Assembly: GCA_051294905.1 (NCBI GenBank)
Contig: CM119371.1
Span: 36,706,001 to 36,770,000, forward strand
Direction: 5' to 3'
Length of the DNA: 64,000 nucleotides
DNA from: Botryllus schlosseri
Lineage: Eukaryota
Below the pieces are notes generated by a model. That model was given only the letters and a program-made list of their open reading frames with translations, made no database searches and had not been told where the DNA came from. Made by a program: the position numbers and the translations under genes. Each line of letters begins with the position of its first letter. Position 1 is the first letter of the stretch. Positions 22,096-37,701 of this stretch are shown piece after piece.

Positions 22096-22341
22096 TCAGG
22101 GCTAAAGATGTAACATTGCATTGGTCCTCAACCAATATGATATATTTAATTGATTATGCACTGTCTCCACTAGGTTTATACTACTGAATATCGTACGAAC
22201 TTCATGAACAACATTATAGTACGACTATCGTATTATCAAGCTATAGAGGATTACAGTCGTTAGCACTCACCTCTTCATTGTTTTCATCAATCGGTGGCAG
22301 CTCTTCACAACACCACTGTCCGGCTGTTGTGCACGCAGCAT
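22096..22341 (-). CDS. Extra exon3 (22271-22341) + exon4 (22096-22101) cassette of the six-cysteine peptide family: (D)AACTTAGQWCCEELPPIDENNEE|P*
   Basis: 71-nt exon with intact AG and GTGAGT sites, the same length and phase as exon 3 of the two complete genes. A one-codon last exon and a homologous 3' UTR follow. No exon 1 or 2 of its own was found. Confidence 0.7.
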
Positions 22342-22421
22342 CTGGGAAGAAATGTTACGTATTGTTAAATATTCTATGTGGAATATACATTGCGCAGGGT
22401 TGTAGTTCATTGGCGTATAAT

Positions 22422-33300: not shown

Positions 33301-36300
33301 TACTCACGCTGCGATTTACTACTAAAAGGATGCGACAAGTCGATCTAATCTATTTTTCTAAATTCTTTCTTGAGTATCAGGGCTTTGGAGCAGGAGCCCG
33401 GAGCCGGAGCCCCGGAGCCGTGCATTTTCACCGGAGCGGGAGTCGGAGCGCTACATAAAATTCAGCCGGAGCCGGAGCCGGAGCTGGAGCCCGTTATTTG
33501 AGGAGTAGCTCCGGCTCCGGCCGATTTCATAAGATGCCAACATGTGCAGCAAACACATCTGCTGATTAATCATAATTAAACAGCAGGCCTGAATTTTAAT
33601 GCTGTACACAGCAATGGCATAGACTAGAGTAAAGTCCAATCTCGTGCAACTATGATGTTGTCGACAATTGACAAGTATTCAGTATGACGTCACAAGCCGG
33701 CACGGCGACACCTATATGTCTTCGTTGCTACATCGGATGTTACTGACTGCTGACTGACTCTAGATTACCCTATGGGTAGAGTAGTAATCTATATAGACCA
33801 GGAATGGCCAACCTTTTCGGGGGGATGAAGGGGCATGTAAAGGGGCACATGAAATTGACGAACGAGTGTGCGGTCCACTAGCCGCGCCAAGCGGGTAAAA
33901 TTTTTTAAGTTTATAAATAAACTAGGTCAATAATATTATTACTTGAGTATTGCGGGTCTATTGTATACCACCCGCTAGGCTCAGTTTGCAAGGACACGAC
34001 TATTCGACGTCTGGTCACATCGATATCGAAGGTCTCTAATAATATGCGACAATCATGTTGTGCCTACATTTCACCGTCGACGATCTTTATGCGAGTGCAA
34101 ACGCGAAAAGACTTTCTCCCGTAACTGCGAATACAGTTATAGACTCAATCGGGTAAATTAGGCGTTATTTTATTTTCAGTAGGAGGTAGGCTACCAAACA
34201 AGAAATTGCGTGACAATTAAACACGCCAAGCGTAAAGAAAGATTTCGCTACTATTTTAGTTTATTGTAATGTACGACGATTTATTGAAAATGTGACTGGA
34301 CCCTGGATCTGCCAATGCGTCGGAAGTCGGAACTGATAATTTAGTCATGAACATCCCAAGTGTCGCAGCCAGAATGGTAATTTTTGGTTGGCATTGCAAA
34401 TGCACAATCTGAGCAATTCATTTTCGATAATATAATAGGAAATTACCTCGCGAGACACGCGAAACCCCCTCGCAGGCCGCATTCGACCCGCGGGCTGGCC
34501 AACCTTGATATAGACAGGCCCATTCGATAATTCCAGAGCCGGAGCAGTGGAAAAATGCGGCTCCGGAGCTGGAGCCGGAGCTAATGAAAGATAGAAGAGT
34601 GCTCCGGAGCCGGAGCTGTAGAAGTTTAAATTTACGGCTGCTCCAAAGCCCTGTTGAGTATATTTCACTATACCTTGATTACCTCTGGCTCTGATCCGGC
34701 CGGAGATCCCACAAGAAACAGGATGATGACCATCAGACTTCGATAATCAGATAATTGTATGCGTGCGTTGTGCAGTTTGACTAATTAGAGCGAAATGCCA
34801 GTAATCTAGCTCTGATCTAATCTGTGATATGTTCCTTGCGCTCTATTTCTAATCGTAATCTAATTTCTTCTGTTCCTTCAAGTTCTACAGGATGACCGTA
34901 TAGTGCGAAACGAGCCAGCCTCAGTATGCAGACATTTTCCACTATCGTGCTAATCAGAATGAACTCTAATTAGATATAAACTGAACTCGATTACATATTC
35001 AAGTTTTCGCGCATTCATTTATCCTCATTTCAATCTAACTTGGAGAAAGCTGTGTAGGTATTGTCCTAATTATAATCTGATTTGGAAAATCTAATAATTT
35101 TGAAGTTGTACAACTCTGTCCACCACTGCGTGGGTGTTATATGGTCACCGCACTCTACGTACACGTAGGCTACACGTACACGCCAGCCAGCTATGACCCG
35201 GCAAAACGTAGCCTATATTAAATGTTTCACAGTATGTCTCATTTCTTTCTAGACGCTATGTGCACAACAGCCGGACACTGGTGCTGCGAGGAGACGGCAC
35301 CCATCGATGAAAACACGGAAGAGGTGAGTGATCAAGACTGTGTAATTCTTCTGTTTCATATTCCTCTGCCGTTATCTTCGAAAATACTCAAGCAAGCTCA
35401 CAAGTAGGCTTACTATCAAATAACGCCTCGTATCATTCGGTTTCCACTTATGGTAACTTTTGGAAGATATTCTTGTTCGTCGTTCATGTAGTCAAGGTGA
35501 CGGAAATTCCGAATCCTTCCTTCAGAAATCAAAAACATAATTGCTTGCTATCGCTTTTGCCTCGTGGAAACTCTCTAGTCTGGTGGTTATTTACCTTCTT
35601 TCCTGCTGCACTTCTTGTCGAAAATTGCCTAGGTCTTGCGCCTGCCCCCATATTTTAAGAACGGTAGTAAAAGCAAGGGGTAAGAATTCGAAGTCCGGTC
35701 GGTCTTTCGGGGGGAAGGGGTACTTCACTTTTGTAAATAGGTTGAATCGCGCCCGAGGACCACTCGGAGTAATTACCGCTATATTAATTGTATATGCTAT
35801 ATTCGGGGTCAAATCAAATTTGTTATGACAACCATCGGTACGGCTCATACGATCTGGCTCAAGCCCGGTGTACATCTCCCGAATCCACCTCCGCGACTGG
35901 CAATACGGAGACGTAAATTGTATAGGGTTTTGTTTTATTGCTTTCTGTGGTCAGTAAATCAACTGAGATAGTGGTAGGGATCTTTGCTCACATTGAATTT
36001 AGTACTGCACCCAGGACCGTAACTGCTGCACCCTAAAACTCCCAATTGAGGGGGGGGGACGAGCTCGAAGGGGCCCAAAATTATTTATTGAATTAGCATA
36101 AATTATAGAGTATTTTTTGAAAATTCATGCAACTTTTTCAAAAGTATTTCGCGCTAGGCGCGATTTCAACTTGCCAGATGTCTTGAATTTTGAGTACTCT
36201 TCCTCCAAGAAAAAATACGCAAGATTTATAGAAATAAGCATGTCCGCATTGGCCATTACAGCGCCACGATTTACCAAGACAAAGTTTTAGGCCATGTAAC

Positions 36301-37701
36301 ATGCAACTCTAAGAAGTGGATCAGGACGATCGGCAGCGAGAAAACCTTGACCGAAAAGGACCGCCATTATGTTGACCGAAAACTTCGTTATATATACAAA
36401 ATATAAATACGTTTAATTGTCCGTAGACGCCTAAATGACTGCCGCCGAATATTTCTGTCTTGGCAATCTGAACCTCACAAGACAAATACCATCCCGCAGG
36501 GAAAAATTATATGCCAGTGAAGAAATGCCAATTTAAAATCGTGTGCGTCTTTCACTGTAGTAGCCTACACCTCACTCAACTCTGCCGGTAAATCTGATTA
36601 CGTGAGCAGAGAGGACAAGAAATTGATAGCAATAGATATGCAATTCCCTATCTTTTTGACTGATTTTATCATGATTTATCGAAAATATTCGCGATTCGCG
36701 TTTGCTCACTACACAGTACGGCTAATTTCGTGGCAAAAGCGAACAACGTGATTGGGGGTAGGTGTATCACCCTGTTGTCGCCCAAGACCCAAGATTTTTT
36801 TAGGGTGGGAGGCAATATAGCAATATATATGCAATTCCCGATCATATTGGCCGATTCAATCATGAATTATAAAAAAACTTCGCGCTTCGTGCGTCCAGGC
36901 GAGCAAAGCTGGCCCAGCGAAAGGCGCCCAATCTAGATGACAAGTATAACGATAAACAGCGGAAAGCATGAGGGGGGTCTGGAGGGGCGAAGCCACCCCA
37001 GAGGTTCGGTTCAACATCATTATGTAGGGGCCCAAGACCCACGTTTTGGGGTGGCCTGACGAAGTGCTGTTACGGCCCTGACTGCACCCTGTTAGTACCT
37101 TTAATATGAATGTATTCTAAACGAAGCAGCGCATTTTATATAACGGTCACGTGAGGCTATACGGGTCACAACACTAAACATTATCATACTTTATGACACG
37201 AGGAAGAAATATTCTGATGATTTAATTTTGTAGCTCTCAAATAGAAGTATATTTAGTTGATCATTTTGACCGAAAACCTTCAAAGCATCTTTAATGTACA
37301 AAAGGTTCTCCTTCTCAAAAGTAGTAGGCTACAGTTCCTCGTTCTTCGAATCCGACACGCTTTGTGCTACGGGATGAAATACCTAGTTCGAAACATTTTG
37401 CGCTCTACTGCGACGCAATTTTCCCCCATATCGCTCCCCTAAGCTCAGCGCCCCTCATATCGCCCACTGAGCGTTTCCGCCCCTTCAAAATCTCAAACGC
37501 TCCTTGGCGCGCTGCCGACCACATTAAGAAACACTGCTCTAAAATGTGATTTTGATAGAATCAAATTACTTTTCAAAGAATTGTGCTGATAATGCTGGCT
37601 GAATAGTATCATGAATTAGACGTTTGCATAGTAATTGAGTATCCATCAAATGCTACCAAATGACATTTTCCAATGCTTCTTCTTTACATTTGCAGACCTG
37701 A
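30369..37701 (+). CDS. Secreted six-cysteine defensin-like peptide precursor, gene B (70 aa); exons 30369-30423, 30498-30578, 35253-35323, 37696-37701
   Basis: Spliced product MTAKICILLLVLSVAVYPVAHSACYCKLNTLLCLTHWVGATNAARDAMCTTAGHWCCEETAPIDENTEET*. As in gene A, exon 1 CDS is 55 nt, intron 1 is 74 nt and exon 3 is 71 nt. The 3' UTR is homologous. Confidence 0.88.
30652..32007 (-). mobile_element. Non-autonomous hAT-like element with a relic of the transposase C-terminal region, in intron 2 of gene B
   Basis: TIR CAGGCCGTGTTATTTTTGG and flanking direct repeat GACCAGAAG (9 bp). The minus-strand relic ..VATIEADMSQIRWARNEFRRNLADLSLEALLQ resembles a hAT dimerization region. Confidence 0.8.
32172..33109. 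mobile_element. hAT-like MITE, same family as 8808-9770
   Basis: Colinear with 8808-9770. Right TIR ATCCCAACACTG. 8-bp TSD TTATAACG. Confidence 0.85.
33378..34653. mobile_element. hAT-like MITE with GGAGCC repeats and a nested Charlie-like MITE at 33799-34507
   Basis: TIR CAGGGCTTTGGAGCAG...CTGCTCCAAAGCCCTG with TSD TTGAGTAT. The inner element has TSD ATATAGAC. Confidence 0.88.
36012..37080. mobile_element. hAT-like MITE in intron 3 of gene B
   Basis: TIR CAGGACCGTAAC...GTTACGGCCCTG. 8-bp TSD ACTGCACC. Confidence 0.88.

Follow-up and report, generated by a model that had tools for sequence, protein, structure and literature searches.

The 64,000-nucleotide window of Botryllus schlosseri DNA analysed here (contig CM119371.1, positions 36,706,001 to 36,770,000) holds part of a gene cluster for small secreted six-cysteine peptides, which on balance we read as a lineage-specific tandem family with a beta-defensin (trans-defensin) fold that serves host defence in this styelid sea squirt. 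As proposed in the original prediction, which was made from the sequence alone, two complete four-exon genes lie head to head, gene A on the minus strand (ATG at 27544) and gene B on the plus strand (ATG at 30369), and their coordinates, exons and motifs check out (Table 1). In both genes, exon 1 encodes a hydrophobic signal peptide, exon 2 three Cys, exon 3 C-x6-CC followed by an acidic tail, and exon 4 a single residue and the stop; all introns are GT-AG, in phases 1, 1 and 0, and the first is 74 nt long. The products share the spacing C-x-C-x6-C-x15-C-x6-CC (1-6-15-6-0), with C1 within 6-9 residues of the signal exon, and the previously noted motifs CLT.W.G, WCC and PIDEN.EE were confirmed in each. 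The sequences upstream of the two genes are 68% identical (27414-27731 for A against 30499-30178 for B), to all appearances a promoter duplicated head to head, with a TATA-like box 67 nt upstream of the gene A ATG. A third exon set, locus C, is likewise present and comprises only exons 3 and 4 and a 3' untranslated region (UTR) homologous to those of A and B; no exon 1 or 2 was detectable for it by nhmmer or motif scan. A spliceable exon-3-like pattern occurs three times in the window, exactly at A, B and C, and not once in 60 shuffles or in 300 kb of flanks, a test that shows rarity rather than independence, as the pattern was drawn from these same exons after the fact.

RNA reads, sampled at 3-13% of each raw run, span all six introns of A and B exactly at the predicted junctions. 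Reads crossing the three introns of B numbered 64, 89 and 57 in run X16, and one X1 contig contains all three, while run X10 gave one spanning read for one intron only and no B junctions were listed for run X12. For A, the corresponding counts were 4, 6 and 3 in X16 and 6, 15 and 22 in X18, with X1 contigs in addition and no junction reads in X17. In both genes the RNA also places the stop in exon 4, after a single domain. Expression of A and B is modest and patchy, a pattern for which tissue, condition, genotype and divergent alleles are each a possible cause. Locus C had zero read depth in four of four runs, and no A-to-C splice joint occurred among the joints listed (three joints stood outside that list); the possibility that C provides A with an alternative 3' end was rejected on these grounds.

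The cluster described in the original prediction is real, but its extent was incomplete and most of the family had been missed. Exon profiles run across 464 kb identified 11 loci over ~122 kb, eight of them intact-looking and three broken (C, E and G/H); C, A, B and gene D1 (42688-44825) are within the window, and seven further loci lie outside it. All members follow the four-exon plan, with TATA-like boxes 67-79 nt before the ATG at the six loci checked. Locus E, whose ATG lies 1.1 kb beyond the window end, is B-like and retains exons 1 and 2 and a 3' piece; its exon 3 was searched for and not found. D2-D5 are tandem copies 99% identical to D1, F is a divergent, intact-looking member, and in G/H a 14-kb element, whose inverted ends measure 4.5 kb, splits exon 2. 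Four genome-wide searches of the assembly (495.5 Mb, 219 contigs) returned no member outside the cluster. The ratio of nonsynonymous (pN) to synonymous (pS) differences was below one (pN < pS) in 11 of 11 exon pairs, with constraint weakest in exons 2-3, and the tail motif is also under purifying selection. Taken together, the family evolves under purifying selection, varies more in its mature part than in its conserved signal peptide, and includes copies that were recently duplicated or have decayed.

Searches of protein collections with half-domain queries, which make absence weak evidence, yielded two candidates among 5.8 billion proteins for the exon-2 alignment, none at E <= 10 (22-79 aa only), and two matches among 1.84 billion representatives, both unrelated repetitive proteins. 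A description of the family was not found in the literature searched, including the available text of PMC9966394, PMC7401272, PMC10433773 and PMC13518417, a search that ran without supplements and most subscription papers; the genes could figure, under identifiers, in the marker tables of single-cell atlases of colonial ascidians.

The paralogs account for the cysteine pattern of A and B. A CxC start is a feature of mammalian alpha-defensins and of the anemone toxins BDS/APETx (PF07936), which share it, together with a terminal CC, with the A/B/E type, and the original prediction had seen in it a link to both. Gene D reads C-x7-C-x6-C-x11-C-x6-CC and F C-x7-C-x6-C-x11-C-x5-CC; in the alignment, C-K at C2, C3 and the following Trp are common to A, B, E and D/F. 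Because the position two residues before C2 is Gly in D, F and H but Cys in A, B and E, which lack the upstream cysteine segment, the CxC appears to have arisen inside the family from a G-x-C motif, which leaves no need for a link to alpha-defensins or anemone toxins. The likeness of the A/B/E type to these peptides would then be convergent. There is no sequence match to BDS/APETx, and the family has no N-terminal propiece; none of the six genome-wide sub-cut-off PF07936 matches falls in the cluster, in an exon-wise and hence weak test. Alpha-defensins, in addition, are reported to carry a long anionic N-terminal propiece (PMC3978490), absent from A and B, and to pair their cysteines 1-6, 2-4, 3-5 (PMC7203481). 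The earlier suggestion of an immune or toxin family therefore survives as one of secreted six-Cys peptides, most likely of defensin fold and defence-related, stripped of its alpha-defensin and anemone-toxin connection.

Of the two types, D/F/H is probably the more ancient and would be a free-standing relative of the cysteine repeat found on peptidoglycan-cutting enzymes. In the A/B/E type, the first helix would have disappeared together with C1, and the Gly that stands two places before C2 would have been replaced by Cys, so that the number of six was preserved; from what is known of the fold, the new Cys could take over the bond to C5 in the beta-defensin sheet. A bolder proposal, that these are tunicate stand-alone trans-defensins and true homologs of vertebrate beta-defensins, in which one clade independently switched from C-x7-C to a C-x-C like that of alpha-defensins and anemone toxins, its first Cys shifted to the position of the Gly before C2, so that both states stand side by side in one cluster, is one that we regard as rather doubtful.

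A defensin fold is nonetheless probable, because it accounts for the six Cys, the invariant CC and the G-to-C swap, where an EGF module accounts for one motif. The rusticalin repeat, Cx6Cx6-7Cx8Cx7CC, has been described as beta-defensin-like (PMC6339383), and we collected 12 such repeats from this genome and 59 from database proteins, which are for the most part lysozymes, amidases and M15 peptidases. The exact spacing is present in 53 of the 59 and absent from D (7-6-11-6). Against the profile of all 71 rows, D scored 11.7 bits over all six Cys, a value reached by none of 500 Cys-preserving shuffles; against the narrower 12-row profile it scored only 3.9 bits (28/500 shuffles). In the reverse search with a D/F profile, the top three matches were defensin-like repeats, and the AlphaFold model of one repeat from this genome, a proxy for the family peptides, matches beta-defensin-fold chains weakly but consistently. 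With the rusticalin/g-type lysozyme/amidase repeat, as described by Daugavet et al. (PMC6339383, PMC7379824), the family shares six Cys ending in CC, a Gly two places before C2, an aromatic residue and Gly after C3, and a short linker behind a signal exon and phase-1 intron, and D aligns over all six Cys. It differs in being single-domain and unfused to a wall-lytic enzyme, whereas the rusticalin type is usually repeated and fused; in a C3-C4 spacing of 11-15 against 8; and in its intron-split domain, its acidic tail and the CxC of A and B, which give no profile score. The signal exon is not shared with the rusticalin-like genes.

Several results weigh against this reading. On the 71-row profile, F (0.6 bits), A (-1.5) and B (-1.4) did not rise above shuffles, and A and B match neither the repeat nor the EGF reference. 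The evidence for the fold comes by proxy and is weak, as the model is of a related repeat rather than of the spliced family peptides; an intron divides the Cys domain, while the rusticalin repeats of this genome are single exons; and the G-X-C at C4 is absent, its Gly standing one place earlier (-3) in D/F/G and missing in A/B. Core charges of 0, +2, -2 and +1 for A, B, D and F, counted without the split codon (a further Asp in A and B), are not those of a strongly cationic peptide. Finally, a profile of 11 tenascin-type EGF repeats of the same genome gave 7.1 bits for D and 13.4 for F (both 0/500 shuffles), over 18-20 positions and two Cys; HHalign of D/F favoured EGF (83%, 19 columns) over the repeat (10%); 23 of 32 EGF repeats exceeded the shuffle level of the D/F profile, against 14 of 70 defensin-like repeats (one mis-cut row dropped); and exon 2 gave weak EGF leads in PF23106 (E 0.0056, 17.2 bits, cut-off 24.3) and in the ESM Atlas (top match EGF, 0.87).

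These last results could mean that the peptides are a remodelled tenascin/teneurin-type EGF module (PF23106, PF07974) that lost two EGF Cys, gained a CC tail exon and now acts as a secreted signalling ligand. GHGxC and C-x2-GW-x-G in exon 2 of D/F/H match EGF, W-x-G is kept in A/B, and exon 2 has phase 1 at both ends, a frequent arrangement in EGF modules. We nevertheless consider this origin unlikely. The local alignments reach two of the six Cys only, the six-Cys EGF order is missing together with the C4-x-C5 pair before GW, and the invariant terminal CC is left unexplained; the scores fall under the Pfam cut-off and the Atlas 0.9 level, and a G-to-C swap that keeps six Cys would have no simple place in the EGF disulfide scheme. 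The sequence scores as such do not appear to decide between a defensin and an EGF fold. Pfam returned matches for only two of nine exons, all below cut-off, and the ESM Atlas no usable match for B exon 3; none of the 13 genome-wide sub-cut-off matches to PF00711 (beta-defensin) lies in the cluster, an insensitive test for a domain split over two exons. Searches of PDB sequences with the exons returned only unrelated folds at chance level, namely platypus defensin-like peptide 1 (E 0.62, given no weight), a spider toxin (E 1.8), S67 (E 0.39), inhibin (E 2.3), LGI1 (E 0.5) and MyT1 (E 1.9), and nothing in two further searches.

Within the defensins, four single Cys and a C-terminal CC, by which trans-defensins are defined in PMC6627431, are present in A, B, D and F, and the tandem cluster, conserved signal and variable mature part are further features shared with that group. 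Vertebrate beta-defensins, panusins and non-canonical big defensins are likewise described with a signal peptide and a phase-1 intron before the Cys region (PMC7203481, PMC3978490); an intron so placed, used as a criterion in PMC7203481, is common in secreted-peptide genes and is thus weak as a marker. The beta-defensin spacing C-X4-8-C-X3-5-C-X9-13-C-X4-7-CC is missed by one residue at C2-C3 in D (7-6-11-6) and F (7-6-11-5), where avian beta-defensins have 3-5 and this family 6, and in three ranges by A and B (1-6-15-6). Of the features given for beta-defensins in PMC3978490, the Gly before C2 occurs in D/F/H but has given way to Cys in A/B/E, and G-X-C at C4 is lacking. Other differences from beta-defensins are the near-neutral core and additional introns, which interrupt the domain and precede the stop. 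By analogy, the family would work most like beta-defensin-type host defence, but we do not file it as beta-defensin because it has neither the classical spacing nor G-X-C at C4. Nor is it an alpha-defensin, a member of the anemone toxins, a strict rusticalin repeat or a complete EGF. Turgencins also have six Cys, with a pairing described as 1-6, 2-5, 3-4, and are not known to have a terminal CC.

The predicted peptides suggest how such a system may work. Exon 1 reads M-x-x-K/R-I followed by a hydrophobic stretch, with best 11-residue Kyte-Doolittle values of 2.8-3.7 in A, B, D and F. The signal peptide would be removed and a ~40-residue disulfide core, its six Cys paired 1-5, 2-4, 3-6, secreted with a 12-residue acidic tail, whose net charge is -3 in A, -6 in B, -1 in F and 0 in D; the D clade appears to have shortened this tail. 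The tail may serve as a pro-piece or charge mask. Its parallel with ascidian antimicrobial precursors, drawn in the original prediction, holds up, as a signal, an active region and an anionic C-terminal region are reported for the linear antimicrobial peptide precursors (Ci-MAM, styelins, clavanins, botryllin), the anionic region in 17 of 22 Ciona precursors (PMC7387483); these are Cys-free cationic helices, in contrast to the disulfide-type Cys core here. Trimming before an acidic residue is favoured over the KK of gene A, put forward earlier as a processing site, because cleavage of precursors in ascidians reportedly takes place in front of acidic residues (PMC7387483) and because KK is found in A only among A, B and C, the other two having EE there. 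As the cores are near neutral, that of B with three His, binding to a surface component of microbes or to a protein target, or a part in immune signalling, would be more likely than membrane lysis driven by charge. Relatives of the D-type domain are reported attached to peptidoglycan hydrolases (PMC7379824), and in a placozoan lysozyme the cysteine-rich domain is described as stabilising the enzyme and being trimmed (PMC12855814), a case which suggests that such domains need not be antimicrobial. By eye, the signal peptides of the family (D1, 44771-44825, and the paralogous exon 1 sequences) start much like the Ci-MAM signal consensus reported in PMC7387483, a resemblance that may be generic.

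A defensin fold could also belong to enzyme inhibitors, directed at carboxypeptidase, amylase or a protease of microbes, in which the acidic tail is retained and contributes to the binding surface. The related repeat is reported to resemble a tick carboxypeptidase inhibitor (PMC6339383; 1zlh was among the fold-search matches), defensin-like amylase inhibitors are described from anemones, and the near-neutral cores, the selection on the tail motif and the lack of a conserved basic cleavage site are all in keeping with inhibition. The tick inhibitor, however, is a two-repeat protein that came out low in the ranking of both fold searches, PF10468 was unmatched in the cluster in exon-wise searches, and D cuts its tail short by a stop, so that we hold this function to be quite improbable. 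The same low standing, or slightly lower, goes to the idea that peptides of the A/B type are toxins or allelochemicals used in defence, which target the ion channels of settling larvae, predators or competitors and have converged on BDS/APETx: beyond the missing sequence match and propeptide, read counts are low and ascidians are not known to have a venom apparatus. What speaks for it is the CxC...CC order together with exposed aromatics (four in the A core, three in that of B), and the repeated recruitment of the defensin fold as a neurotoxin, as reported in PMC6627431. That the exons are chance or decayed sequence from which no peptide is made, as the lack of a protein record, the broken loci C, E and G/H and the missing junction reads in X12 (B) and X17 (A) might suggest, is largely refuted for A and B by six exactly spliced introns, purifying selection and the negative chance test, and is hardly credible for the family.

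Table 1. Positions in the window of the exons and associated features of genes A, B and D1 and locus C
Feature	Positions	Strand	Basis
Gene A exon 1, ATG 27544 and signal peptide, 18 codons, phase-1 end	27490..27544	minus	intron 1 read-spanned; hydrophobicity
Gene A exon 2, C1-x-C2-x6-C3 and CLT.W.G	27323..27415	minus	exon reading and RNA reads
Gene A exon 3, C4-x6-CC, KK, acidic tail	26813..26883	minus	exon reading and RNA reads
Gene A exon 4, one residue and stop (26353-26358), then 3' UTR homologous to B and C	26114..26358	minus	homology and reads
Upstream region of A, homologous to that of B, head to head	27545..27731	minus	sequence homology
Gene B exon 1, ATG 30369, signal peptide	30369..30423	plus	homology and RNA reads
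Gene B exon 2, C1-x-C2-x6-C3	30498..30578	plus	exon reading and RNA reads
Gene B exon 3, C4-x6-CC and acidic tail	35253..35323	plus	exon reading and RNA reads
Gene B exon 4, one residue and stop (37696-37701), then 3' UTR	37696..37928	plus	homology and reads
Locus C exon 3, open frame, splice sites intact	22271..22341	minus	exon reading
Locus C exon 4 (22096-22101) and 3' UTR homology	21892..22101	minus	homology
Gene D1 exon 1, ATG 44825, predicted signal peptide	44771..44825	minus	sequence
Gene D1 exon 2, C1-x7-C2-x6-C3, G-x-C2 and GW	44597..44686	minus	sequence
Gene D1 exon 3, C4-x6-CC, shorter tail, in-exon stop; 71-nt length and donor as in A/B/C	42852..42922	minus	sequence
Gene D1 exon 4 start, stop codon behind conserved acceptor	42688..42690	minus	sequence

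All five D copies carry a double stop inside exon 3 and still keep the downstream donor, and D1 also keeps the exon-4 acceptor. Beyond the window, four tandem units of ~8-12 kb (L006-L010, G000:C1 ~36774000-36814200) are 99%+ identical and each contain a D gene and a copy of the B last exon; their D copies vary in residue 3 of the signal peptide and in a single residue of the mature part, and the units could be a very recent amplification or partly a product of assembly. The insertion in G/H (L012-L014, G000:C1 ~36836086-36850074) has 4.5-kb arms of 98.8% identity, AGTAGT ends, a 6-bp duplication and no long coding frames. Upstream of D1, a 13.4-kb element (46352-59732 of the window) has 6.2-kb inverted arms 99.9% identical, AGTAGT ends and a 6-bp target duplication; we take it to be a non-autonomous Maverick/Polinton-type transposon, and the G/H insertion to be of the same kind. 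A Pfam scan, which misses short exons and so says little about synteny, found no cathepsin or TRAM domain, the neighbours of vertebrate defensin clusters, among 185 long flanking frames (105 from 244 upstream or in the cluster, 80 of 179 downstream); its matches were to sulfotransferase, PH/Rubicon, G-protein-coupled receptor, actin-like, zinc-finger and mobile-element domains. A further region (L016-L020, G000:C1 ~36664000-36706000) is dense in long intronless frames with IAP/BIR, ubiquitin-conjugating, leucine-rich-repeat and two ISXO2-like transposase domains, as well as several unnamed frames of 500-1200 aa; it adjoins a retroelement with a Tpt1/KptA domain and is possibly a giant transposon or endogenous viral region. 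Elsewhere in the genome (L061-L065, G000:C6 ~13.29-13.42 Mb), at least three rusticalin-like M15 peptidase genes are clustered, one preceded by eight cysteine-repeat exons where two are usual; the peptidase domain of L063 is 80% identical to that of Styela clava, 60-74% to those of other ascidians and 44-46% to those of amphioxus, as would be expected of a styelid ascidian. A Ciona protein record (P0014) that combines a kinase domain with four defensin-like repeats may be a fused gene model.

Overall, the cluster points to an apparently lineage-specific, new variant of secreted six-cysteine peptides that is probably defensin-fold and defence-related. Tunicates are the closest invertebrate relatives of vertebrates, and the tunicate antimicrobial peptides known from the cited literature are linear helices or turgencins, with big defensins reported as absent from Urochordata (PMC7203481). 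If our reading is true, a defensin-fold family of free-standing peptides would close a gap in trans-defensin history and bring new effectors to a model animal for innate immunity; if the EGF origin is true instead, the genes would represent an unusual EGF-derived family of secreted ligands. The cluster also holds a rare natural pair, the C-x7-C and C-x-C versions of one domain, through which a route from the beta-defensin to the alpha-defensin and anemone-toxin pattern would be testable with two 40-residue peptides.

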